DNA of 64,000 nt from an uncultured Pseudomonadales bacterium (GTDB lineage: Bacteria; Patescibacteriota; Microgenomatia; UBA1400; PJMF01), in the NCBI GenBank assembly GCA_964491115.1, contig CAZBEW010000001.1, positions 62,936 to 126,935 of the forward strand, given 5' to 3'. The notes under the pieces are model-generated. The model was given only the letters and a program-made list of their open reading frames with translations, was not told the DNA's origin and did no database searches. The position numbers and the translations under genes are program-made. This document shows positions 1-12,289 of this stretch, in pieces. The first letter of the stretch is position 1. The number at the start of each line of letters is the position of its first letter.

Positions 1-194
1 GTTGGGCAAAGAGAATTTAACTTGAGTCGGATCTTGACCAGCCAACTTTAAGTTAACACTGGCAGCTCCAGCCGTGTTGTCCTTTAAGGTTTCAACATCT
101 GAAAACAATGCTTTTGATAGGCGCAATGCACCAAACACCATGGCTATTGTCAACAAAAGACCCAAGCCTAGTTTCTTAATTTTTTTATTTTTGC
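1..194 (-). CDS. Partial TasA/camelysin-like secreted protein with a SipW-cognate-class signal peptide. The start codon is in the window at 192-194 and the gene runs off the left edge.
   Basis: Minus-strand translation from ATG 194 gives MSKNKKIKKLGLGLLLTIAMVFGALRLSKALFSDVETLKDNTAGAASVNLKL. The FSD-x-E-T...NTxxAGxxxL pattern closely matches the TasA/camelysin N-terminal signal region. It directly abuts the upstream ORF, indicating an operon. Confidence 0.5.
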
Positions 195-854
195 TCATAG
201 ATTACCTTTCTTTGAGCTAATTAATACTTTTTCTTTTTTCTTTGATTTGGAAAATATTGATCGATAAATAAAAAATATTAATATTAAAAAAAAGATGAAG
301 ATCATCAAGCAAATAATTACAAATGTCTTGGGTTCTGACACCACTGGTGCAACAGTGGCTTGTGCTGGAAGAACTTGTGGATCTCCTTCTTCACTTTGAA
401 GACCTAGAACTTCCTGATTTTGAGGCTGACTAGTTTCTGTTTGTTGGCAATTAAGCTTAAAATTTAATAAAAAGTTTGTTTGAAATTCTTCTGCTACTTC
501 TGCTAAATAAAATTCAAGTCGATAGAGCTTAAAACTATCACCAGCAATAGTTAAAAGATTAATTTTTTCTTGAAAAAATACTTGTAAATTGTCATCAAAT
601 AGCAATTGGTTTTGCTGAAATATTTTGACAAATATTTTTGACCAGGGTTGTTCCCCAACTTCTTGCTTCGGGCTGGCTTCTAAACTCAGCTGACAGCTAT
701 CTTTTAAGTAATTATGAATTAATAAATAATAGTTGTATTGGGCAGGTATTTGCTGAGTTTTAATATTAATTCCAGGCAAAGACTCTTCAGCCAATTGGCA
801 CTGATCAGCAGCATTCAATCCGCAGTTGATAATTATTTGATGACCACTAGGCAT
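195..854 (-). CDS. Hypothetical protein with a C-terminal TM anchor and a Lys-rich tail
   Basis: 219-aa ORF. The C-terminus reads PKTFVIICLMIFIFFLILIFFIYRSIFSKSKKKEK (hydrophobic helix plus basic tail). TAATG overlap with the upstream ORF; no recognisable catalytic motifs. Confidence 0.45.
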   Translation of the reverse strand: MPSGHQIIINCGLNAADQCQLAEESLPGINIKTQQIPAQYNYYLLIHNYLKDSCQLSLEASPKQEVGEQPWSKIFVKIFQQNQLLFDDNLQVFFQEKINLLTIAGDSFKLYRLEFYLAEVAEEFQTNFLLNFKLNCQQTETSQPQNQEVLGLQSEEGDPQVLPAQATVAPVVSEPKTFVIICLMIFIFFLILIFFIYRSIFSKSKKKEKVLISSKKGNL

Positions 855-1849
855 TAAATCACCTCCAAATAAAAATTACTTGAATTGACACAACTTAAAT
901 CTTGAACATTAATGAGAATTTCTTCGCCAAAATTGGGCCAGAAATCTGTAATAGTCATTTGAGGAAAAAGGAAATGGTTTTTTTGTATTAATTGTTCACT
1001 CTTTTCTTGCCCACAAGTTAAAAACCAACGATGATTTTTAAACACTGTTTCAGTAATTGTTGAAAATATAAAAGTAAAACTCCCATCTACCTCCTCGATA
1101 AGACTGGGCTTAGTAATTTTTTGCGAAACAAATTGATAAATTGGCCAATCATTTTCTGCAATCCTGATCTTGCCTTGCTCAACATATGTTTCTGGATTTT
1201 GAACAAGTTGATTGTCTAGTAATAATTGATCACCAACCTGCCAGACAATGACTTGTGAACTAAGATTTCTTATATAAACAGAGCTTGGCTTATCCTGGTC
1301 TCCTAAATTTCCCGCATAAAAACGCAAATGTTTATTAGATAAATCATAGGCTCTTAAATCTAAAATAACTTTTTGCCACTGACCATCGCTTTGTTTTATA
1401 CTTTTGGCAAAAATTAATTCTTGCTTAGCTTCTCCCTCAATACTGATGTAAAAAACTGGCTCATCAAAAGCAGATAAGTCTTCGGCACTGTCAATAAAAT
1501 ATTCAAAGCTGATAGCAGGTGGAAAATCTTTGGCTAAATCTAGTGAATAAAAATCATCTATTTCAATGATTAAGTTAGGATCAAAATCTTCCTTGAGTAC
1601 ATAAGACTGATTTTCCCCTATTAAATAAAAATTGTCTTCTACTTTATTGCTTTGTCCATCAAGTCTGCTCTCCTCTTTTTTTTCGGAAAGTTGCAGCTGC
1701 TGCTTAATTTGATAATCCCCAGCTGACTTAAGTTGAATGATGTTGTTAGGAATTGTGAATTGTAATTCACGCGCATGAATAATATTGGGGAAAAGTAGAT
1801 AAAAAATAATTACTAGTAAGAGAAATATTAAACGACGCATTAAGTGCAT
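854..1849 (-). CDS. Hypothetical secreted protein; first gene of the TasA-like operon
   Basis: 331-aa ORF with an N-terminal signal/TM segment (MHLMRRLIFLLLVIIFYLLFPNIIHA). Translationally coupled (TAATG) to the next ORF. Confidence 0.5.
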   Translation of the reverse strand: MHLMRRLIFLLLVIIFYLLFPNIIHARELQFTIPNNIIQLKSAGDYQIKQQLQLSEKKEESRLDGQSNKVEDNFYLIGENQSYVLKEDFDPNLIIEIDDFYSLDLAKDFPPAISFEYFIDSAEDLSAFDEPVFYISIEGEAKQELIFAKSIKQSDGQWQKVILDLRAYDLSNKHLRFYAGNLGDQDKPSSVYIRNLSSQVIVWQVGDQLLLDNQLVQNPETYVEQGKIRIAENDWPIYQFVSQKITKPSLIEEVDGSFTFIFSTITETVFKNHRWFLTCGQEKSEQLIQKNHFLFPQMTITDFWPNFGEEILINVQDLSCVNSSNFYLEVI

Positions 1850-1881
1850 TATCTAAATAGAAAATGACAAACTTGCTCACA

Positions 1882-1910
1882 TTTACAAAGGCTTAAAAAA
1901 TTTGTATAAT
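1882..1910 (+). promoter_or_regulatory. Sigma70-type promoter for tRNA-Glu
   Basis: -35 box TTTACA (1882-1887), a 17-nt spacer, and -10 box TATAAT (1905-1910). The tRNA 5' end lies about 14 nt downstream. Confidence 0.6.
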
Positions 1911-1923
1911 CCAGAGGTAACTA

Positions 1924-1995
1924 GGCCCTATCGTCTAGCGGTTAGGACATCGGGTTCTCATCCCGGCAACTGGGGTTCGATTCCCCATAGGGTCA
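1924..1995 (+). tRNA. tRNA-Glu (anticodon CUC)
   Basis: Hand-folded cloverleaf. Acceptor GGCCCTA/TAGGGTC with one G-U pair; D-stem GTCT/GGAC; anticodon stem TCGGG/CCCGG; loop TTCTCAT with U33, CUC and A37; T-arm TGGGG-TTCGATT-CCCCA; discriminator A. CCA is not encoded. Confidence 0.8.
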
Positions 1996-2416
1996 CACTT
2001 TGTCCATTTGAGGCTTTAAAAACCTTAATTTGCTTGAATAAAACTGTCTTCTCACACGCTCTATATCGGTTTTTTTTGACATACTTTATCCCCTTGCCCC
2101 CTACTTGACTAGGGGTGTCCATGCACGCATCCACTGTTAGACTTACCACACTAGTGTTTATTTACAACAAAGCAAGCGTTGAGGGGGGAGCGTATCTTGA
2201 ATTGACAGGAAACCTTTGTGCATAGTGTTATTGTAGATAAAAAAATTTGAATAATTTATTTTACAATAACAAAAAGACTTAGATGTATATATTGTGTTAT
2301 AATAATATCGTTAATTAGGTTACTAAGGAAGAAAGCCTTCCTCAAAAGCGACTTAGTTATAAATTGCTTGCTTGACGGGATCGATCCAGAAGTTCTAAGA
2401 ACAAGGAGAAGATCAA

Positions 2417-2596
2417 ATGTCACGAGAAAGTGCTGAAAAACAGTGGAATAGGTTGGTGAGTGAGTTCAATCTCACCCGTGAAGAACAAACGCAAGTCCAT
2501 CGTCATCTGGCTAACAACTACAGCCTTGAAAAAGACTACATGTCCTATGAAGAGCTGAAGTCCGCTGCCAGCGAAGTAGTATTACGCATCCGTTAG
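2417..2596 (+). CDS. Small hypothetical protein of 59 aa (below the 60-aa ORF-track cutoff)
   Basis: ATG 2417 is preceded by a strong SD AAGGAGAA at a 6-nt spacing. The product is MSRESAEKQWNRLVSEFNLTREEQTQVHRHLANNYSLEKDYMSYEELKSAASEVVLRIR. GC is clearly above the local background. A hairpin with a T-run follows the stop. Confidence 0.4.
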   Translation: MSRESAEKQWNRLVSEFNLTREEQTQVHRHLANNYSLEKDYMSYEELKSAASEVVLRIR

Positions 2597-2626
2597 GGAG
2601 AAATTCCTGTCGGCAAGCAAAAAAGT

Positions 2627-2656
2627 AGAGGACTAAGAAATTAGTCCTCTTTTTCT
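2627..2656 (+). terminator. Rho-independent terminator hairpin, possibly bidirectional
   Basis: Stem AGAGGACTA (2627-2635), loop, stem TAGTCCTCT (2642-2650), then TTTTTCT. It follows the 59-aa ORF and overlaps the 3' end of the minus-strand ORF 2641-3063. Confidence 0.5.
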
Positions 2657-3063
2657 AAAATAAAACTTCCACCAGACGTGGTCAAAAAAGCTTCTTCAAT
2701 TTTGTTTAATGACCATCCATTATTTTCCATACTATTCAAAATAATTTTTAGTTCACAATTATCAAAAGTAAATAGTAGTTTATCGTCTACAACAGATACA
2801 TCTTGCAAAGACATACTCATCAATTTTTGAAGAAAATTATCAATCTCACTAAAACTGCTCCCAGCATCTAAGGATAAAGCACTACTTTTTAGCCACCAGT
2901 TATTTGAAACAGCTAGAGTGTAATCACCTGCTCCTTTATCATCAATTTTACCAAATTCAAAGAAGATAGAAGATCCATAACCTCTCCAAGCCCTACTTAT
3001 AGGTAGTTTTTTGAGAATACTAAAATGTTCAATAGCCTGATTTATTGAAATTTGTTTTTGCAT
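2641..3063 (-). CDS. Hypothetical 140-aa cytoplasmic protein; immunity-protein-sized, family not recognised
   Basis: Clean ORF with no TM or signal segment. It lies in the tRNA-adjacent islet next to an ABC exporter. Confidence 0.45.
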   Translation of the reverse strand: MQKQISINQAIEHFSILKKLPISRAWRGYGSSIFFEFGKIDDKGAGDYTLAVSNNWWLKSSALSLDAGSSFSEIDNFLQKLMSMSLQDVSVVDDKLLFTFDNCELKIILNSMENNGWSLNKIEEAFLTTSGGSFILEKED

Positions 3064-3303
3064 AATTATATTCTATCATTTCTTAATAATTTTTCACTTT
3101 GTTTGTTCATAACTTTCTCTTAAATTTTTAATTAAGTAAAAATTGATCAACTTTTTTATGATGTCTTTGGCCAATATTAGGTTTGGAGGAATTACTGAGC
3201 AATTTAATTCATCTGTAAATAATTGAGAAATTAATCATCCACTACTTCTTCCTCTACCAACTTTTCAGTTCACAAAATGTTTTAAGCATTGTATAAGTAA
3301 TTA

Positions 3304-3573
3304 ATGCGCCGCAAACCATTGCTTCTTGCAATTATTTCATCAGTTGGAATAGCTTTTCTGCTACCGCTATTAATAGTCAACCTACTGCATTTGATGAAAG
3401 TGCTTCCTCCGCAATCAACATCTGGAACAGCAATTCCTTTGCCCAATAATATTTTCTCGTTCATATTTGTTATGTACTTTCTCTTTCCCAGACCTTTTTT
3501 AATTCTAATTGTGATTTCAGCGTTGTTATATCAAAAATTAAAAGTGTATTTTAAAAAAGTTTTGGGTTCGTAA
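3304..3573 (+). CDS. Possible small hydrophobic protein of 89 aa
   Basis: Two hydrophobic stretches in a 600-nt AT-rich gap. No SD. It overlaps a 60-aa antisense ORF. Weak call. Confidence 0.2.
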   Translation: MRRKPLLLAIISSVGIAFLLPLLIVNLLHLMKVLPPQSTSGTAIPLPNNIFSFIFVMYFLFPRPFLILIVISALLYQKLKVYFKKVLGS

Positions 3574-3672
3574 AATTGATAAAGAAAATTAAAAAGTCAC
3601 TTTTTATTATTAAATTTCTCAACAAATTCTTTTAATTGGAAACAAAACTAGTAAATTTTTCTCAGTAAAATT

Positions 3673-4881
3673 CTATTCGTATCTCAAGGCTTCAATTGGC
3701 GAAAGATTGGCCGCTCTTTTAGCCGGCGCTACGCCAAAAATTAAGCCAACGGCTGTTGATACTCCAAGAGCTAAAAGGACCGCTGTTAAGGTAATTTTAG
3801 CTGGAAAAATTGATTGGATGGCCCAAGTGCCAAGCACGGCTAAAGCCAAACCCATCAAACCCCCAAAAATAGAAAGTATTGATGCTTCAATTAAAAATTG
3901 TACTAAAATTTGATTAGGCGTCGCTCCTAAAGCCTTGCGCAAACCAATTTCTCTAGTGCGTTCTGAAACTGACACCAACATAATATTCATGATGCCAATC
4001 CCACCCACTAATAAGGAAATGGCGGCAATACCACCCAATGCCACAGTTAACATGGACAAGATATTATTAATCGTGTCTAATAATTGAGATTGATCAAAAA
4101 CGCTAAAGTCGTCTTCGTCTAAATTTTTTTCTAATTCTTTTTCAATTGCTTCAATTGCTGGTGGAATCAAACTTGGATCTTTAATTTTTACTGAAAACTC
4201 AGTTAAGTCTTGACTTTCATAAATTCGACTAACTAATGAGTAAGGAGCATACACACGGTTGTCAAAACCAGCTCCAGAAAAACCTTGACCTTGTTCGGCT
4301 GCCACTCCTACCACAGTAAACATTTGATTACCAATGCGTAATTTTCGAGAAACTGGATCAACACGATCAAATAATTCTTCAGCCACTCCATGACCCAAAA
4401 CCACAACTCTATCTCCAGATCTTTCTTCACTTTCATTAAAATAACGCCCACTAGCCATATTGACGGTAATCACTTCTGGATAATTCGCTAAAGTACCTAA
4501 AATAGTGACTCTCATCGTATTATTTAAAAATTTAGCCTCATCAATTCCCGAAGAATTATAAGCAACATCGTCTACATATTCTCTAAGTCTTTTGACTCGC
4601 TCAATATCCCGTAGTGTAAATTTTTTTTCTGAGAGAAAGCGATCCATGCTTCCTTGACCCACGCCACCTTCACTGTCAATCATTTGGCCTATTGATACAA
4701 AAACTGTGTTGGCACCTAAACTCTCAAATTGTTCGGAAACATAAGCTTGCAAACCATTGCCCAAACCGGTCAACATCACTACTGAAAAAACTCCAATAAT
4801 AATGCCTAGGGTTGTTAAAAAAGTTCGGCCCTTATTCACTAACAGAGCCTTAGTGGCAACTTTAAAAGTATTTAATAGCAT
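3673..4881 (-). CDS. ABC transporter permease, MacB/FtsX-like
   Basis: 402 aa with an N-terminal TM, a large periplasmic loop and a C-terminal FtsX-like triple-TM region. It overlaps the upstream ATPase gene by 10 nt. Confidence 0.85.
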   Translation of the reverse strand: MLLNTFKVATKALLVNKGRTFLTTLGIIIGVFSVVMLTGLGNGLQAYVSEQFESLGANTVFVSIGQMIDSEGGVGQGSMDRFLSEKKFTLRDIERVKRLREYVDDVAYNSSGIDEAKFLNNTMRVTILGTLANYPEVITVNMASGRYFNESEERSGDRVVVLGHGVAEELFDRVDPVSRKLRIGNQMFTVVGVAAEQGQGFSGAGFDNRVYAPYSLVSRIYESQDLTEFSVKIKDPSLIPPAIEAIEKELEKNLDEDDFSVFDQSQLLDTINNILSMLTVALGGIAAISLLVGGIGIMNIMLVSVSERTREIGLRKALGATPNQILVQFLIEASILSIFGGLMGLALAVLGTWAIQSIFPAKITLTAVLLALGVSTAVGLIFGVAPAKRAANLSPIEALRYE

Positions 4882-5594
4882 TTTTTACCATCAGTTCGAC
4901 GATCTTTAACTATCTGACCGTCTTTAATAATAATTTCACGACTGGCAATTTTTGCTACACTTTGATCATGAGTAACCAAAATAATAGTTTTGCCTTCCTT
5001 ATTAAGTTGAATTAAGATTTTTTTTATTTCATCTCCAGCTTTTGAATCAAGATTACCGGTTGGTTCATCAGCAAAAATAATGCTCGGATTATTGACTAAA
5101 GCTCGAGCAATTGCCACTCGTTGTTGTTGTCCACCAGATAATTCTCCTGGCTTATTTGACAATCTATTACCTAAACCTAGTTTCTTAAGCATAATTGTCG
5201 CTCTTTCTTTTCTTTCTTCATCAGAAACTTTAGCATAAACCAGAGGTAATTCAACTTGTTCAAGAGCTGGAGTTTTGGCTAGTAAATTAAATTGCTGAAA
5301 AATAAAACCAATTTCTTTATTGCGCAAATGGGCTCGATCTACTTCATCATATTCGGTCACATTTTTTCCTCTTAGAAAAATTTCTCCATGTGTGGCTTGA
5401 GATAGCATGCTAGCTACTTGCAATAAAGTTGATTTGCCAGAGCCAGACGCCCCCATAATCACCACAAAATCTCCCTCACAAATGCTTAAGGATAATTTGT
5501 TTAAAGCTGGGATTTGTTGCTCACCTAAAGTATAAATTTTAGAAACTTCTTTCAACTCTAAGATGGCTGTGAGACTCTTTTTAGTTTTAGCCAT
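4872..5594 (-). CDS. ABC transporter ATP-binding protein (MacB/LolD-type)
   Basis: Walker [13 protein letters not shown] signature [15 protein letters not shown], Walker [13 protein letters not shown], and an H-loop. Confidence 0.9.
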
Positions 5595-5602
5595 AAGCAG
5601 GT

Positions 5603-6658
5603 CTAACTTTCAATAAGAATAATTTCGCCTTCTTCTAAACCCTCAATCACCTCGGCCATTTCATCATTTTCCAAACCTAGTTTAATTACTCTGTCTTCAG
5701 GAGTGACTTGATTTGGATTTTTAACCTTAACCATTGTTTGACCTTCTTGACTAAAGATGGCTTCTAAGGGAACTACTAAGACGTCACTTTTGCGGGCTAG
5801 CTCAATTTCGACATCTACATTCATGCCAATTCGATACTTATTCAAATCTTCAACTCCAGCCAGAGGTAACTCTAGTTGAAAAACTGTGCCAGTACTACCC
5901 GTCATGCTTTTAAAAGCAATGTAGTCTATTTGACTCATAATTTCTTCTTCTGCATAAGCATTAAAAATAATTTTAGCTGTTTGGCCTAGGGAAATTAATG
6001 GTAGATCAATTTCATCAATTTCGGCTTTAATTATTAAAGTTTTGGGATTAACTAATTCAAAAACGTCGCTGGGAGATAAAACCACTCCAGTCACAGGCGT
6101 CGGTGAGGATAGTAAAATGCCAGCAAAAGGGGCACTCATCACTCGACCATCAACAGCAACGCTTGTTAATTCTACATCTAGAACGCTATTATCCATGAGA
6201 TTTTGCTCTTTTTTTCGCGCTCGTTTTTCATCGTCATCTAAAACTTCGCCTTCGTCTTCCTTTAATTGAGCGTCCCAGTCTAATCGAGTATTTTCGTAGT
6301 AATTGAGGTTTTTCTCAAGATTTTTTTGTAAATCTCGAGTATCAATGGTGGCAATAGTTTGCCATTTATTTACCCAATCGCCTGTTTTTGCTCCCAAATA
6401 AACCAGCTTGCCACCACCCGCAAAATTTAAATTAACTCTTTCTTTAGCATCAAGATTTCCTGATAAAAGCATGGTTTGGCTGATATCTTGTCGAGTAAGC
6501 TGATGCTCGCTGAATTCAACTTCTTGCTTTTTAGCCCGATTCCAAAAAAATAATGCCACAATTATTAAAATTATTAATAGACCAAAGAATAATTTGCGTT
6601 TTTTACTTTTATCAGTGAAAAAGGTTTTAAACTTGTTTTTATTTTTGATATTTTTCAT
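5603..6658 (-). CDS. HlyD/MacA-family periplasmic adaptor (membrane fusion protein)
   Basis: N-terminal TM anchor, then a lipoyl/beta-barrel-like pattern (LSGNLDAKERVNLNFAGGGKL...). First gene of a three-gene exporter operon. Confidence 0.8.
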   Translation of the reverse strand: MKNIKNKNKFKTFFTDKSKKRKLFFGLLIILIIVALFFWNRAKKQEVEFSEHQLTRQDISQTMLLSGNLDAKERVNLNFAGGGKLVYLGAKTGDWVNKWQTIATIDTRDLQKNLEKNLNYYENTRLDWDAQLKEDEGEVLDDDEKRARKKEQNLMDNSVLDVELTSVAVDGRVMSAPFAGILLSSPTPVTGVVLSPSDVFELVNPKTLIIKAEIDEIDLPLISLGQTAKIIFNAYAEEEIMSQIDYIAFKSMTGSTGTVFQLELPLAGVEDLNKYRIGMNVDVEIELARKSDVLVVPLEAIFSQEGQTMVKVKNPNQVTPEDRVIKLGLENDEMAEVIEGLEEGEIILIES

Positions 6659-6799
6659 TTTGTTAGCTTCTGTCCAATGCTATTTTATTTAAATTTATTA
6701 TAAAGCTTGTTTATAAAGGTTGCCTAGTCTAACAATAAAAAGCAAATTTTTCAATGATTGACTATTAAAACAGTAAAAATTTTGTTAGAATGATTTATT

Positions 6800-7327
6800 A
6801 TGATGAAAAAACTTAATTCTGTGCTTTACAACAAACGAATTAAAGAAATCGCTAAAAAAGGAGAAACTCTTCTTAAAGACTTACCTCATCTTCCTCAAGA
6901 CTGGGTAAAAAATATTGTTAAAGTATTGCCCATTTTAGTTCTAATTTTTGGCGTAGCATCTGTATTTTCTGGAGTTGAAAATTTATTATCCTATAGTCGT
7001 CGTAGTTTTCTCACAGAATGGATGGGAATTGGTCGATCTTATTATTATGTCAACGCTGCTTTTGCTGTTTTAATTGGTGCTCTTTACTTGATGTCCCATA
7101 AACTTATTAAAAATAAAGAATATGAGGGTTGGCTTTTACTATTTTGGACCGCTATTTTATCTGTAGCGCACAGCCTTGTTTTATTAATTTTGGGTTGGGG
7201 AGGCATATGGGGTTCCTTAATTTCTGCTACAATTACTTTCTATTTACTTTATGAAATTCGAGCTGAATTTATTTCTGCAAAAAGCCCTAAAGTTTCTGAA
7301 CCTAAATCTAAAAAAACTAAAAAATAA
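6800..7327 (+). CDS. Hypothetical polytopic membrane protein
   Basis: 175 aa with about 4 predicted TM helices. Divergent from the exporter operon. Confidence 0.5.
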   Translation: MMKKLNSVLYNKRIKEIAKKGETLLKDLPHLPQDWVKNIVKVLPILVLIFGVASVFSGVENLLSYSRRSFLTEWMGIGRSYYYVNAAFAVLIGALYLMSHKLIKNKEYEGWLLLFWTAILSVAHSLVLLILGWGGIWGSLISATITFYLLYEIRAEFISAKSPKVSEPKSKKTKK

Positions 7328-7333
7328 GCACAC

Positions 7334-8404
7334 ATGACTTACGAAGATATTGTTAAGCTTTTAGATGGAGAGGCCAAGTATCTATTGGCTCACCGCTGCA
7401 ATAATTTAGCGAAAGACTTGATTTATCAAGTTAATCCCAACCAAGTTCAAGAAGTTTTTGCGCAATCAAACCGTAATCAAAAGGTGTTAGATAATTTGCA
7501 AAAATTATATGCTCATGGTCGTTTGGCCAACACCGGCTATCTATCAATTTTGCCAGTCGATCAAGATATAGAACACAGCGCTAACTTTTCTTTTTATAAA
7601 AATCCACTATATTTTGATCCTGAAAATATAGTTAGATTAGCCCTTGAAGCAGGTAGCAGTGGGCTCGCTTCTAGCCTTGGTGCTTTAGCATTACTAAGTA
7701 AAAAATACGCAGATAAAATTCCCTTAATTGTTAAAATCAATCACAACGAACTCTTAACATATCCAAATAAATGGGATCAAGTTATTTTTACCAAAGTTAA
7801 ACAGGTTTATGAATTAGGAGCAGTGGCTGTCGGAGCCACCATTTATTTTGGCTCAGCTGAAAGCAATCGACAAATTGTTGAAATAGCTCAAGCCTTTGAT
7901 GAAGCTCATCGCCTAGGTATGGCTACTATTCTCTGGTGTTATCCACGTAACAGCGCCTGGGAAAGCAAGGATAATGATTATAATTCGAGTGCTGATATTA
8001 CCGCTCAAGCCAATCGCTTGGGAGTTACCATTGGGGCTGATATTATTAAACAAAAAATGCCCACAACTGATGGCGCTTTTCGTCATTTTAAATTTGCTAA
8101 ATATAATGACGAGATGTACGAGTCTCTCAGTACGGAAAATCCAATAGATATGCTTCGTTTACAAGTAATCAATTGTTATGCTGGCAGAATTCCTTTACTT
8201 AATTCTGGCGGTGAAAGTGATAGCGATGGTGATTTTAATAAGGATTTAAAAGATGCGGTTCGAAGCGCTGTCATTAATAAGCGAGCAGGCGGATCAGGAT
8301 TGATACTAGGCAGAAAAGCTTTTAAACGACCAATGGCTGAGGGAGTGCGTTTACTGCAAGCCGTTCAGGACGTTTATTTAAACGAGCAAATTACTATCGC
8401 TTAA
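7334..8404 (+). CDS. fbaB: Class I fructose-bisphosphate aldolase, FbaB/DhnA type
   Basis: Closely collinear with E. coli FbaB. Shared blocks include LLxHRC, GRLAxTGYLSILPVDQ, NPLYFDP, GAVAVGATIYFGS, ADIxxQANxL, TIGADIIKQKMP, VINKRAGGxGLILGRKAFK and VQDVYL. Confidence 0.9.
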   Translation: MTYEDIVKLLDGEAKYLLAHRCNNLAKDLIYQVNPNQVQEVFAQSNRNQKVLDNLQKLYAHGRLANTGYLSILPVDQDIEHSANFSFYKNPLYFDPENIVRLALEAGSSGLASSLGALALLSKKYADKIPLIVKINHNELLTYPNKWDQVIFTKVKQVYELGAVAVGATIYFGSAESNRQIVEIAQAFDEAHRLGMATILWCYPRNSAWESKDNDYNSSADITAQANRLGVTIGADIIKQKMPTTDGAFRHFKFAKYNDEMYESLSTENPIDMLRLQVINCYAGRIPLLNSGGESDSDGDFNKDLKDAVRSAVINKRAGGSGLILGRKAFKRPMAEGVRLLQAVQDVYLNEQITIA

Positions 8405-8433
8405 TTGCTTACCTCAGCGCTCGCCCATTTTAG

Positions 8434-9042
8434 TTAATTTTTTTCCAGAAACTCAAATAAAGCTTGCCAAGCTTTGGCCCGATGAGAAATCTTATTTTTG
8501 ACTACCATGCCCAATTGGGCAAAACTTAAATTATAAGCATCAGGAATAAAAATCGGATCATAGCCAAAACCTCCCTTTCCCTGAATTTTTGGCGCAATCT
8601 GACCAGTCACTTCTCCCGAGAAAAACAAGGGTTTATGCTTTTTGTAAGCATAGAGACACAGTATGGTTTGAAATTTTGCACGACGATTGGCTTGCTTCTC
8701 TAATTTTTTGAGCAAAGCGAGATTGCGCTCAAAATCACTGCCCTCAATCCAACGATTTGAATTCACTCCTGGAAAATTAGGATAAGTATCCAACAATAAG
8801 CCACTGTCGTCAGCGATACAAGGCAAATGACTAAAGCGATTAAAAGCTTGAGCTTTAATTAAGGCATTAGCTTGAAAAGATTTAGCGGATTCTTGAATAT
8901 CCAAATCTTTAGGAACTATTATTCCTAAATGCTCAAGGATTTCTTGATCCTTAACGCTTAACAACTGGTGTTTGCTGCTAAGAAAAATGTCTTTGGCTTC
9001 TGCAATTTTGCCCTGATTTGAACTGGCAAACAATATCTGCAT
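8434..9042 (-). CDS. rdgB: Non-canonical purine NTP pyrophosphatase (RdgB/HAM1 family)
   Basis: Blocks N-term FASSNQGK, GYDPIF and C-term SHRAKA are typical of the HAM1 family. Confidence 0.85.
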   Translation of the reverse strand: MQILFASSNQGKIAEAKDIFLSSKHQLLSVKDQEILEHLGIIVPKDLDIQESAKSFQANALIKAQAFNRFSHLPCIADDSGLLLDTYPNFPGVNSNRWIEGSDFERNLALLKKLEKQANRRAKFQTILCLYAYKKHKPLFFSGEVTGQIAPKIQGKGGFGYDPIFIPDAYNLSFAQLGMVVKNKISHRAKAWQALFEFLEKN

Positions 9043-9048
9043 GAAAAT

Positions 9049-9336
9049 TTATCTGCCGAGCATCCCACCTAAACCACCAGTCATGCTTTGTAATTTTTTA
9101 GCTGCCACTTCTTGAGATTTTTTAATGGCTTTATTTAGAGCATTAACTAAATCAGCGCTGTGAATTCCTTGAACCGAAACATCTTTAATATTTTGATCGC
9201 CTGCAATTGTCACCACAATGTCCCCTTCTTCAACAACAATTTCTTCTGCTGCTAAATCTTGTTGCATTTGTTTGGCTTGCTTGCGCAATTTGTTAAGGTC
9301 TCCCAACTGGCCTAATAAACCTGCTTTGTCTGACAT
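9049..9336 (-). CDS. ybaB: YbaB/EbfC nucleoid-associated protein
   Basis: 95 aa with an LxKQAxQMQQ pattern, immediately downstream of dnaX. This is the conserved dnaX-ybaB arrangement. Confidence 0.8.
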   Translation of the reverse strand: MSDKAGLLGQLGDLNKLRKQAKQMQQDLAAEEIVVEEGDIVVTIAGDQNIKDVSVQGIHSADLVNALNKAIKKSQEVAAKKLQSMTGGLGGMLGR

Positions 9337-9388
9337 AAACTCCTTTTTTACTAATTTTTACTAATAATAATAAATAATATTAACTGAA

Positions 9389-11035
9389 TTATATCAAAAC
9401 ATCTTTTGCTGTTTCCAGCAAATCGTTTTTACTTGTTTCTCTAGCTTTGCTTAAAACAAAATTAAATTGAATTTTTTCTCCTAATAATTGTTGACAACTT
9501 TGATCGAGTACATTCTGATATTTTTGTTGTTCGAGTTGCTCTTTATGAAAGTCATAAAAAACTAATATTTTAGCGGTATTATCAATCACTTCTTCTAAAC
9601 GACAGGACTTTAATAAGGCCGACAAAGAAAAATTTTCTTTAGCAACAAGATTCAATAATTTTTGCCACCACTCTATGGGTAAAACATTAGACAATGAATT
9701 GTTTTCACTTCGTGTTGATTCTTGCTGGGTTTGTTCTTGCTGACTTGCTTGCTGCTGGGTTGATTGTTGCTGGGTTGATTGCTGCTGGGTTGATTGCTGC
9801 TCCGTGTTATCTTTAAAATCAGGTGCTGCTGGATTTTCTTTAAGATCAGCTACTACTGAGTTAATTGGGATTTTTTTTTTGCTTGCTGCTGGAGTTGGCG
9901 AGGAATTAAACTCTTTAATTTTTCCCTGATCTGTATTGCCTTGCTTTTTATTCTGAACATTAGACCGATCAATGATATCCAAAAAACTTAATTCCAAGGC
10001 TAAAAAGGCAATTGGTAATTCTTCATGCAAGTTGCACATGGAAAATTCTTTTAACAAAAACCTATCAATTTTTGCTTCAGCAAAAGCCTCGCCCTTTTTA
10101 ACACCCAAATTGATTAATAAATCATCGTGCAAAAATTCTAACAAATCTTTATAAAAATCTTTTTGTTGCAAGTTTTTGTTACGCAATTCTTCAAAAATTT
10201 GACTAATTTTTTTGGCCTCTTTAGCTAATAATAAGTTTAGTAATTCTTTAATATAAACAAGGTTGTCTTGGCCCAAATAATGAGCAATACTGCTCATCTT
10301 TAATTCTCCAGTCTGACAGGCTAATTCAAGAATTTTTACTGCATCACGAAAACTACCATCAGCTCGTTTGGCAATGGCTAATAAATCTTCTTCTTTATAT
10401 TTAATTTTTTCGCTAGCTAGAACTCTTTTTAGTGACTCGACAATTTCTTCTTGGCTGGCTTTTTGAAAATTTATAACGGTACATCGGGAAATTATGGTAG
10501 CTGGCAGTTTTTGCAGTTCAGTGGTGGCTAAAATAAAAACCACGTGTGGCGGTGGTTCTTCAAGCATCTTCAAAAAAGCATTGAAGGCCTCAGTGGTTAA
10601 CATGTGCACTTCGTCTAAAATGTAGACGGCCATTTTTGCCCCCTGCGGAGGAAGCACAATTCGTTCTTTAAGTAGGCGAATATCATCAATGCCACGATTG
10701 CTGGCAGCATCAAGCTCATTCACTAAAAATGATTGACCCTCATAAACTTTTTTAGCTAGTGCTGAATCTGGATCTGGTTCTTGAAAAGCTTTGGTTTTTT
10801 TATTTTTAGACTCTTGGCCAAAGTAAACTTGATCCACTAAAGCTTCATTTTTTTTATCGTTGAGTAAGAGCGCTAAAATTCTTGATGCAGAAGTTTTACC
10901 AGTGCCTTTCGGCCCAGCAAAGATTAATGATTGAGGAATTTTTCCAGCCTCCATCATTGCTTTGATACTATTTCTGACCTGTTTTATATCTAGTTCTTCA
11001 ATAGTTTTTGGACGATATTGACGATGCCAAGCCAT
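9389..11035 (-). CDS. dnaX: DNA polymerase III subunit gamma/tau
   Basis: N-term MAWHRQYRPKT, Walker A GPKGTGKTS, and a clamp-loader AAA+ core. The central low-complexity linker carries QQSTQ repeats. Confidence 0.9.
   Translation of the reverse strand: MAWHRQYRPKTIEELDIKQVRNSIKAMMEAGKIPQSLIFAGPKGTGKTSASRILALLLNDKKNEALVDQVYFGQESKNKKTKAFQEPDPDSALAKKVYEGQSFLVNELDAASNRGIDDIRLLKERIVLPPQGAKMAVYILDEVHMLTTEAFNAFLKMLEEPPPHVVFILATTELQKLPATIISRCTVINFQKASQEEIVESLKRVLASEKIKYKEEDLLAIAKRADGSFRDAVKILELACQTGELKMSSIAHYLGQDNLVYIKELLNLLLAKEAKKISQIFEELRNKNLQQKDFYKDLLEFLHDDLLINLGVKKGEAFAEAKIDRFLLKEFSMCNLHEELPIAFLALELSFLDIIDRSNVQNKKQGNTDQGKIKEFNSSPTPAASKKKIPINSVVADLKENPAAPDFKDNTEQQSTQQQSTQQQSTQQQASQQEQTQQESTRSENNSLSNVLPIEWWQKLLNLVAKENFSLSALLKSCRLEEVIDNTAKILVFYDFHKEQLEQQKYQNVLDQSCQQLLGEKIQFNFVLSKARETSKNDLLETAKDVLI
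9752..9796. repeat. 15-bp tandem repeat (three units) inside dnaX, encoding QQSTQ x3
   Basis: Three consecutive units of TGCTGGGTTGATTG(T/C) on the plus strand. Confidence 0.7.
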
Positions 11036-11062
11036 ATTTATTCAGTGTAACACATTAAAAAA

Positions 11063-11458
11063 TTAATGGTCATCGTGATGATAACCTAATAAATGAAATA
11101 AGCCGTGTTCTAAATAAAAATTTATTTGGTCGTCGACTAGCCGACCAAAACGTCGTGCAGTTTTGACTGCTTCTGGAAAACTAATAACAATATCACCTAA
11201 ATGAGGAGCTAATTCTTTGGGCAGAGGTAAGTCATTAATTTGACCCTTGTCGTGCTGTGGAAATGATAAAACATCAGTGACACCAAAGTGTCCAAGTTTT
11301 GATTCATTAAGTTCTTTTATTTTTCGACTACCAACTATGGAAATATCAACTTGAGCATGATCAATCCCTCGTTCGCTTAAAACGCGCTTGACGGTTGCCC
11401 GTAATTGTCTTCGCTTAACCGGATAACGAGAACCAATATATAAATTACAAATAATCAT
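11063..11458 (-). CDS. ybeY: rRNA maturation endoribonuclease YbeY
   Basis: Blocks TDVLSFP and LGDIVIS, and the metal-binding motif HGLFHLLGYHHDDH (H-x3-H-x5-H). Confidence 0.85.
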   Translation of the reverse strand: MIICNLYIGSRYPVKRRQLRATVKRVLSERGIDHAQVDISIVGSRKIKELNESKLGHFGVTDVLSFPQHDKGQINDLPLPKELAPHLGDIVISFPEAVKTARRFGRLVDDQINFYLEHGLFHLLGYHHDDH

Positions 11459-11467
11459 AATTATTCT

Positions 11468-12289
11468 TTAATGAGCCATTAAGGCTTCTAAACTGATATC
11501 AAGAGGTCCTAAAGGAATTTGATCTTCTGGATCGTCCACAAAAAGCAAAAATACTCGACCTCGAGTGTTATTAGACCAAACTTTTCCCTCTCTAATTACT
11601 TCTGGTGATCCACCAAATTGTTTTTGCACCCAGGCAGCTGGACCAGCATCAGCTATTACCCCAACCACAGCCATTTGTTCACTCGGGTTAATCATAATCA
11701 TTTTACGGTATTTATACCAGGGTTTTAGTTCCGGATAATCTTGATTCCAATTGGGTAAATACATTAATTGCACCGCAAAATAATATTTTTCTCTTAAAAT
11801 CGCTTCTTGAGTGAGTTCACCCGCTTCTGTGAACCAAGAAAAGGCTCCTCGATTACTTGCTAAACCAGCCTCTCGATAAGCATCATGCTGATCAAGACTG
11901 TCGCCAGGATAACGCATTAGATGTTGTTCGGCTCCCATAATGCCAATACTATGATTTAGTTTTTTTCCTTCAAGCTCATGACGCACATCAAAACCTAAAA
12001 TTAGGCTTAATTGTTGTTCTAAATATAGCTGGGTTTCCGTTTCCAAGTGTCCAGCTGGCCCATTAACAAAAGAAGTTAATTTAGCCATAATTTCTTGATA
12101 TTCGGTGGCTGATAAATCAAAAGCTAAATCTTTGTCTTTTTCTTGCCCAGTTTTAGCGTAAATGGCTTTATCAAGCACCAACTCATTGCGCATCTGAGGA
12201 TTCATCATGGCCATCTGTCCCGCAACAGCTAAACCTGCCACCAGTTGTTGAGAGCCATTTTTAAAGGCTGTTGTCTTCTGTTTTTTCAT
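11468..12289 (-). CDS. Hypothetical protein of 273 aa
   Basis: Clean ORF in the housekeeping gene string with no recognised motifs. Its 5' end overlaps gltX by 29 nt, so the true start may be an internal Met. Confidence 0.45.
   Translation of the reverse strand: MKKQKTTAFKNGSQQLVAGLAVAGQMAMMNPQMRNELVLDKAIYAKTGQEKDKDLAFDLSATEYQEIMAKLTSFVNGPAGHLETETQLYLEQQLSLILGFDVRHELEGKKLNHSIGIMGAEQHLMRYPGDSLDQHDAYREAGLASNRGAFSWFTEAGELTQEAILREKYYFAVQLMYLPNWNQDYPELKPWYKYRKMIMINPSEQMAVVGVIADAGPAAWVQKQFGGSPEVIREGKVWSNNTRGRVFLLFVDDPEDQIPLGPLDISLEALMAH

Follow-up and report, generated by a model that had tools for sequence, protein, structure and literature searches.

The mRNAs of type I toxins, such as those of hok/sok and aapA1/isoA1, are known for long-distance interactions between their 5' and 3' ends, and type II toxin-antitoxin (TA) systems, polymorphic toxins with their immunity proteins and the islets found at tRNA genes are further architectures against which a small gene pair on a mobile element can be compared. 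MacAB-type exporters are another point of reference, as a pump type that can protect against peptides, for example YknXYZ of Bacillus subtilis. Here, we describe a locus in a 64,000-nt stretch (the window) of contig CAZBEW010000001.1, from an uncultured bacterium of the Candidate Phyla Radiation (CPR; Patescibacteriota in GTDB), that can be set beside each of these systems. We consider it very probable, as one joint statement, that positions 1997-3123 are the remnant of a decayed mobile element beside a tRNA-Glu gene, that its GC-rich patch is a pseudogene and that the exporter operon further along is unrelated to it. The only parts of the remnant that are still under selection are two convergent genes, encoding proteins of 59 and 140 amino acids (aa). 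For the locus as a whole, the likely explanation is an eroded remnant at tRNA-Glu from which a portable gene pair has survived, lying near an unrelated MacAB-type pump.

The tRNA-Glu gene (anticodon CUC; 1924-1996, plus strand), located by both ARAGORN and Rfam (tRNA, 58.7 bits), forms the left border of the remnant, which begins at 1997, the base right after the tRNA. From there to 3123, the window is colinear with a better-preserved fragment of the element, locus L013. On the minus strand, the remnant consists of a relic of a DUF5655 gene, the 140-aa gene, the convergent 59-aa gene and a relic of a DUF6788 gene, followed by the tRNA; L013 keeps the same order plus an extra 171-aa gene. In blastn, window 2287-3122 matches L013 at 76%, and 2492-3122 matches loci L011 and L012 at 85%. 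Homology stops at 3122-3123, within the last nine codons of the gene found ahead of the 140-aa gene in both L011 and L013. This right border (3064-3123, minus strand; alignment A2 with L011 and L013) holds a DUF5655/PDC-S18-like relic of which only the last nine codons and the stop are left (LRESYEQTK*, 3123-3094), and a short spacer carrying TGATAGAAT-N6-ATG. The corresponding 178-aa protein of L011 matches DUF5655 (7.7e-13) and the PADLOC candidate defence model PDC-S18 (9.5e-36), and L011 adjoins a GP3_package phage small-terminase-like gene. In L011 itself, this PDC-S18-like candidate defence gene (1-846), with a NucS_C-like N-terminal part and DUF5655, is split into two open reading frames (ORFs); it directly precedes the 140-aa gene, and a functional link between the defence candidate and the 140-aa family is possible in this lineage. 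The 140-aa protein is also identical to a hypothetical protein of a Candidatus Pacebacteria (CPR) metagenome-assembled genome, and it is present on an 804,852-bp JGI contig (L002) as well as on many short contigs of conspecific strains.

The left part of the remnant is the stretch that the sequence-only reading had singled out as GC-elevated and non-coding. A local peak is indeed present at 2080-2200, about 120 nt at 47.9% GC, but nothing beyond it is GC-rich: 1997-2416 as a whole has 35.5%, against a mean of 35.6% for the window, and a 200-nt window at 42% GC is merely in the top 10% of the 64 kb. The label non-coding did not hold, since the minus strand translates to a decayed gene with stops and a frameshift (1997-2223; tblastn, blastn and translations) that includes the GC-rich core. 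With the 121-aa protein of L013 as the query against the whole window, tblastn returns 2186..2115 at 67% over 24 aa, with an in-frame stop (E 1e-6), and blastn pairs 2114-2243 with L013 1487-1618. The minus strand of 2115-2186 reads PLNACFVVNKH*CGKSNSGCVHGH, 67% identical to PLNACLVINKYKCGKSNCRCNRGH of the L013 protein, and the pseudogene translations continue as PLNACFVVNKH*CGKSNSGCVHGHP*...; in sister strains, the match covers aa 14-73 at 47% (tblastn). A start codon is still visible at 2223-2221 (MHKGF... versus MYKGF... in L013), but it lies 2 nt out of frame. Further damage comprises a -2 frameshift, three in-frame stops and the loss of a Cys motif, to which the window allele adds a 2-nt indel; the reading frame runs directly into the tRNA with its C-terminal third gone. 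Because of the three stops and the frameshifts, we call this copy a pseudogene, with no intact DUF6788 ORF, and because the L013 protein falls just below the cut-off for DUF6788 (PF20586; 25.3 bits versus 27.2), we call it DUF6788-like. A literature search on DUF6788 found no paper, and one on DUF5655 only a genome note on Methanobrevibacter smithii. Two other ORFs in this region, at 1902-2108 and 1958-2149, were rejected as non-coding on account of their overlap with the tRNA gene and the relic.

Could the GC-rich stretch instead encode a structured non-coding RNA? The local GC content of up to 48% within 2080-2200 and a short hairpin, CCCCCUACUUGACUAGGGG, in the minimum free energy (MFE) fold speak for this reading of 1997-2290. 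However, the MFE z-scores for the two strands of 1997-2420 (-1.2 and -0.9) are not significant against shuffles, and the stretch has no Rfam match even at E<=10. More generally, Rfam gave nothing but tRNAs, whether over the whole window at gathering thresholds or over 1850-3750 at E<=10, where non-tRNA matches all had E>=0.048 and scores far under those thresholds. In addition, a DUF6788-like protein, interrupted by stops and frameshifts, can be recognised in its translation, and this pseudogene accounts fully for its composition. We regard a non-coding RNA here as very unlikely; judged by its translation, the GC-rich stretch is a dead DUF6788-like gene. The structured RNA whose presence the sequence-only reading suspected is found elsewhere, in the untranslated regions (UTRs) of the 59-aa mRNA (2326-2380 and 2605-2620).

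The two surviving genes are convergent and have one terminator in common. As predicted from the letters alone, the 59-aa gene (2417-2596, plus strand) has a near-perfect Shine-Dalgarno (SD) sequence, AAGGAG, 8 nt ahead of its ATG, and both the terminator hairpin and the 140-aa gene (2641-3063, minus strand) are in place. The pair recurs in five other contexts, and wherever a 59-aa homologue was found, a 140-aa homologue faces it tail-to-tail (L013, L014, L117 and L101/L120/L121). The two partners differ strongly in their rates of change: in L013, L014, L117 and L101, the 59-aa protein is 92, 68, 68 and 68% identical to that of the window, where the 140-aa protein reaches only 55, 27, 37 and 31%. 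Compared with L013, the 59-aa gene has a dN of 0.040, a dS of 0.68 and a dN/dS of 0.06, and is therefore a real and strongly constrained protein gene; the corresponding values for the 140-aa gene are a dN of 0.306 and a dN/dS of 0.26. In L101, L120 and L121, the pair belongs to a conjugative-plasmid-like unit with DUF2958, Replic_Relax, a type IV secretion system (T4SS) coupling protein, an rve integrase and GmrSD; in L101 and L120, it lies between Replic_Relax and the coupling protein, with rve and GmrSD close by. The L120 contig (JAHKLX010000019.1, 26.8 kb), which with L101/L121 carries a 142-aa/62-aa version of the pair, is binned as a Candidatus Micrarchaeota archaeon, and this plasmid-like set is either a mis-binned plasmid or an element common to very different hosts. 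In L117, a CPR-like genome, the pair directly follows a tRNA-Met gene. Two tRNA-Met genes, at 7077-7151 (minus) and 7766-7835 (plus), bracket a 160-aa ORF immediately upstream of the L117 pair; the second is just 70 nt long, and the arrangement may be a duplicated tRNA attachment (att) site.

The decay of the pair is one-sided. A 240-bp segment (2292-2531; alignment A1) is missing in most conspecific strains: L001, L002, L003 and L005 carry the deletion, while the window and L007 are intact. In these strains, the 59-aa gene has thereby lost its promoter, its 5'UTR and its first 38 codons. Independently, L011 and L012 have truncated the same gene at another breakpoint, with homology starting only at window position 2492. 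In both events the 140-aa ORF is intact, and the reverse loss was never seen.

The mRNA of the small gene is predicted to be structured. An extended -10 element, TGTTATAAT (2295-2303, plus strand; sequence reading and alignments A7 and A8), precedes a 5'UTR of about 100 nt; L013 and L101 have conserved it, and L014 and L117 carry elements like it. This leader contains a hairpin at 2326-2342 (plus strand), AGGAAG-AAAGC-CUUCCU with an additional outer stem in the RNAalifold consensus, whose 3' arm carries a conserved CCUC motif resembling an anti-SD sequence. Further downstream, the 5' arm of a long-range helix (2364-2380, plus strand) is predicted to pair with a 3' arm between the stop codon and the terminator (2605-2620, plus strand), enclosing the ribosome-binding site (RBS) and the ORF; duplexfold gives -29.2 kcal/mol, a value reached by 0 of 200 shuffles. 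The terminator itself is a 10-bp hairpin at 2627-2650 that overlaps the stop codon of the 140-aa gene, scores on both strands in the terminator scan and is conserved with compensatory changes in L013, L014 and L101. Its T-runs on both strands identify it as a bidirectional intrinsic terminator common to the two convergent genes. From an alignment of five loci, RNAalifold recovers the 5' stem-loop with CCUC, a 10-bp long-range helix and the terminator de novo. Paired alignment cells amount to 87.8%, versus 33-49% when the partners are slid by 1-3 columns, and 17 of the 25 pairs have changed on both sides, a count that none of 500 shuffles matched. Within helices 1 and 2, pairing reaches 82-87% and 11 of 15 pairs show compensatory changes; helix 3, the long-range helix, is 93.8% paired, and six of its ten pairs have changed on both sides. 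As an independent check, the energy of the 5'UTR/3'UTR duplex beats all 200 shuffles in four of the five loci and 184 of 200 in L117.

The 12-16 bp arms that bracket RBS and ORF could also be read as DNA-level inverted repeats of a mini-element or of an invertible switch, and in L014 the fragment of a coiled-coil gene lies upstream that looks recombinase-like by eye only, Pfam giving no recombinase match. Such a reading appears extremely unlikely to us. The U-G and G-U wobbles of the helix are valid pairs on the sense strand only and would be A-C mismatches in DNA or on the opposite strand, which favours pairing at the RNA level over inverted repeats in the DNA; moreover, the window remnant contains no recombinase, and the orientation is the same in all five loci.

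At the protein level, the 59-aa product, with 10 acidic and 9 basic residues, is hydrophilic; AlphaFold2 (AF2) models it as three helices, which are amphipathic, with a predicted local distance difference test (pLDDT) score of 82. Its fold matches are generic helical bundles only, sigma-factor domains among them. It has no match in Pfam, PHROG, PADLOC or NCBIfam, and an IMG/VR search with its profile returned nothing. The 140-aa protein is acidic, cytoplasmic and a member of a sparse, uncharacterised family: phmmer finds 32 relatives among 1.84 billion representatives, and a profile search 264, all of them 'hypothetical', with some annotated as PF11228/DUF3027. The protein itself has no Pfam, PHROG, PADLOC, NCBIfam or PDB-sequence match, and Pfam matches none of 23 members of the family. 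The one hit of its profile in IMG/VR, L019, was discarded as spurious, as the motif lies in a non-coding frame of a high-GC contig. The AlphaFold model is a confident alpha+beta sandwich (pLDDT 94), which weakly resembles the immunity protein PIM7 (PDB 8owu chain E). Foldseek against the PDB yielded nothing at E<=1e-3, and the resemblance is therefore a lead rather than a classification. The sequence-only reading had judged the 140-aa product to be of immunity-protein size; no SUKH, Imm, PADLOC, PHROG or NCBIfam family matches it or the 59-aa protein. The 171-aa ORF beside the pair in L013 (971-1486, plus strand) is probably distantly paralogous to the 140-aa family, according to hhalign (probability 72%, E 3e-5), so the element may carry tandem diversified copies. 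The ATG of the 140-aa gene, like that of its homologues, follows an extended -10 element (TGnTAnAAT) at a distance of only 6-27 nt, and an SD sequence is missing (window 3061-3078 on the minus strand; L011 ~860-880; L013 ~150-171; L101 1918-1940; L117 7965-8003), which suggests leaderless or near-leaderless mRNAs.

But what might such a pair do? Tentatively, we propose a toxin/antidote-like or conflict module, in which a conserved small effector, locked by its own mRNA, is matched with a fast-evolving neutraliser. The 59-aa three-helix protein would be the effector, and its synthesis would be held back at the mRNA level: the covarying helix between 5'UTR and 3'UTR would close the small mRNA, whose upstream hairpin carries the CCUC anti-SD motif. 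The acidic, fast-evolving 140-aa beta-sandwich protein would act as a neutraliser or partner at the protein level. In a toxin/antidote pair of this kind, it would make sense that the small gene is destroyed and the 140-aa gene survives. A conflict module would fit four observations: the two genes evolve at different rates, only one of them is lost, mobile elements carry them, and the mRNA is built like that of a type I toxin. That the 59-aa protein is toxic, that it binds its 140-aa partner and that the RNA controls translation are inferences. More doubtful still is the wider claim that mobile elements of CPR bacteria and their neighbours carry, in this pair, a conflict module of a kind not described before, combining type I-like RNA control with protein-level immunity through a partner of NFACT-N/PIM7-like fold.

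Several observations weigh against a conflict module, and some of them favour a different role, that of a non-toxic, conserved cargo or housekeeping module of mobile elements, the main rival reading and one that we rate as about equally likely. The genes are convergent and not co-transcribed, and both have promoters of their own; no toxin family matches the hydrophilic 59-aa protein; and its generic helical fold matches include sigma-factor domains. It could, for example, act as a small regulatory or DNA/RNA-binding protein whose structured mRNA is subject to autoregulation, and the 140-aa protein could be an independent accessory, either anti-defence or nucleic-acid-binding (NFACT-N/Fpg-N-like), that is linked to it by nothing but the terminator. 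Homologues of the 140-aa gene do exist without the small gene, as in the closer homologue L123 (41%), and in L011 and L013 the 140-aa gene lies directly downstream of the PDC-S18-like candidate defence gene. The asymmetric decay amounts to two events only, and the covariation comes from five sequences, with the structure derived from the same alignment. On the other hand, the linkage of the two genes holds down to 27-31% identity of the 140-aa partner, the small gene alone was lost in two separate events, and the large rate asymmetry together with the type-I-toxin-like mRNA lock fits a conflict module better than a simple regulator.

Beyond the remnant, on the minus strand, lies the complete exporter operon that the sequence-only reading had announced (3673-6658; Pfam and NCBIfam matches). 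It encodes a MacB-type permease of 402 aa with a MacB periplasmic core domain (MacB_PCD) and a C-terminal FtsX module of four transmembrane segments (3673-4881; PF12704 2.2e-45, PF02687 4.2e-20), which matches the NCBIfam MacB model at 3.2e-63 but stays under its equivalog cut-off; an ATP-binding cassette (ABC) ATPase of 240 aa (4872-5594; PF00005 1.4e-33, with MacB and LolD-like NCBIfam matches), whose gene overlaps that of the permease by 10 nt; and a membrane-fusion adaptor of the HlyD/MacA-like type with 351 aa (5603-6658; HlyD_D23, HlyD_3), which scores 101.8 bits against TIGR01730 RND_mfp (cut-off 94.9). Permease, cognate ATPase and adaptor in one operon make this a MacAB-type pump, while equivalence to the fused MacB of E. 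coli is not supported (NF007826, 214 and 252 bits versus a cut-off of 966).

Between remnant and pump, positions 3064-3672 form an AT-rich gap of 609 nt at 27.4% GC. The claim that this gap contained only tiny hydrophobic ORFs was wrong, as it holds an 89-aa ORF with two predicted transmembrane segments (3304-3573, plus strand), which gene callers report at 89 or 96 aa in sister strains. A comparison of the strain clades gives five silent changes and no replacement in codons 1-37, and the 3' half has clustered replacements and an in-frame 3-nt indel (an extra Pro codon); a 1-nt indel frameshift swaps the C-terminal tail between the 89- and the 96-aa version (L002 9470-9760). We read it as probably a real but fast-changing small membrane protein. 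It has no Pfam, PHROG, PADLOC or NCBIfam match, and we found no evidence tying it to either remnant or exporter. A minus-strand ORF of 60 aa in the same gap (3282-3464) was dismissed as non-coding, its ATG being lost in sister strains.

The sequence-only reading had joined these parts into a degraded peptide/toxin-immunity-export locus, in which the 140-aa protein would provide immunity, the small ORFs would be toxin remnants and the pump would export or protect. The degraded islet beside a tRNA gene is there, but no link between the cassette and the exporter was found, and we consider the export locus very unlikely. The ability of this pump type to protect against peptides, the weak resemblance of the 140-aa fold to PIM7 and the 89-aa membrane ORF between cassette and pump do argue in its favour. 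Against it stand the five other contexts of the pair, none of which has such a pump, and the distribution of the pump itself, whose adaptor-ATPase-permease triad recurs in 80 loci of many phyla, at 34-46% identity, without the window's other genes. As far as the data reach, the exporter is a widespread system with unrelated neighbours. Its GC content of 36.7% is about the genome mean, and the homology borders of the remnant, at 1997 and 3123, fall well short of it. Neither an Imm/SUKH nor a bacteriocin family was matched, no bacteriocin-like precursor was found in the gap, and the 89-aa ORF lacks a double-glycine leader. The exporter is an ordinary MacAB-type pump without detectable link to the remnant or the pair.

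An eroded remnant at tRNA-Glu beside an unrelated pump has its own weak points. The whole 64 kb contains no att repeat of the tRNA 3' end at up to 3 mismatches, neither ORFs nor Pfam reveal an integrase or recombinase in 1997-3672, and no empty-site genome was found; an exact-sequence look-up of the window's MacB gave one short contig. With integrase, att repeat and empty site all missing, we infer the insertion at tRNA-Glu from adjacency and truncation only. The best MacB match among GTDB species representatives, at 46%, is no close relative, and the comparison of the exporter's neighbourhoods reaches beyond the genus only. In addition, a repeat scan of 1-12000 showed nothing relevant to the islet, and blastn of 1997-3672 against the INPHARED phages gave no match.

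A few observations concern the surroundings of the locus. On the other side of the tRNA, two minus-strand genes encode proteins of 331 aa (854-1849) and 219 aa (195-854) without Pfam or NCBIfam matches; the former, 328 aa long in some strains, carries a hydrophobic segment at its N-terminus. Further away, a four-copy 15-nt tandem repeat (9714-9801) lies inside a dnaX-like gene (9389-11035, minus strand), where it encodes a QQSTQ-type low-complexity insert in the homologue of the DNA polymerase III gamma/tau subunits.

Finally, we would like to place the locus into the context of the described systems. The exporter resembles the MacAB/YknXYZ/DevBCA-type (type VII ABC) exporters in its adaptor, its ATPase and its MacB_PCD and FtsX permease, encoded by overlapping genes. 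E. coli MacB is a fusion of nucleotide-binding domain and permease, whereas ATPase and permease are separate polypeptides here, and the host is a CPR bacterium without a known TolC-like partner. Like tRNA-associated islets and decayed integrative elements, the remnant lies directly against the 3' end of a tRNA gene, contains truncated and pseudogenised genes whose intact versions occur in plasmid-like and phage-like contexts, and differs between strains, most of which lack the 240-bp segment; the pair occurs again beside tRNA-Met in a CPR-like genome. Unlike them, it comes with neither an integrase nor a repeat of the tRNA 3' end, an empty-site genome is likewise missing, and its size of ~1.1 kb is far below that of a typical island. 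As such, the islet is ordinary: a CPR genome of ~0.8 Mb still holds eroding mobile-element debris at a tRNA gene. The lesson is that a 'GC-rich non-coding' patch can be merely a dead gene.

The comparison of the pair with conflict systems is of more interest. In contrast to polymorphic-toxin immunity, no upstream toxin with a trafficking domain lies near the 140-aa gene; its conserved neighbour is the convergent 59-aa gene, which has no such domain and is much more conserved than the putative immunity gene. PIM7, the immunity protein of the DNase toxin PT7, is 16% identical to the 140-aa protein, with no relationship at the sequence level. The 140-aa protein also differs from NFACT-N and the N-terminal beta-sandwich domains of Fpg/Nei in being a stand-alone domain, and it lacks the catalytic N-terminal Pro-Glu and the H2TH domain of Fpg as well as the rest of NFACT. 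From type II TA systems, the pair is set apart by its convergent rather than co-transcribed genes and by the absence of any Pfam, PADLOC or NCBIfam toxin or antitoxin domain. Type I TA differs in that its toxins are small, hydrophobic and membrane-active, unlike the hydrophilic three-helix 59-aa product, and the conserved neighbour in the pair is a protein gene. Nevertheless, it is the type I mRNAs of hok/sok and aapA1/isoA1 that the 59-aa mRNA recalls: it is closed by a covarying 5'UTR/3'UTR helix, the counterpart of the 5'-3' lock, which is found as helix 3 in five sequences only; it has an upstream anti-SD element; and the module travels on mobile elements. What is noteworthy is the combination of a very strongly constrained 59-aa protein, a 140-aa family that is sparse and has no name, and a covarying helix closing the small mRNA, carried in plasmid-like, phage-like and tRNA-islet settings; as a lead that can be tested, the pair with its structured mRNA is of modest interest. 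Should it prove to be a toxin/antidote or defence-related pair, the conflict systems known from CPR bacteria and their mobile elements, still very few, would gain a small and easily testable member.

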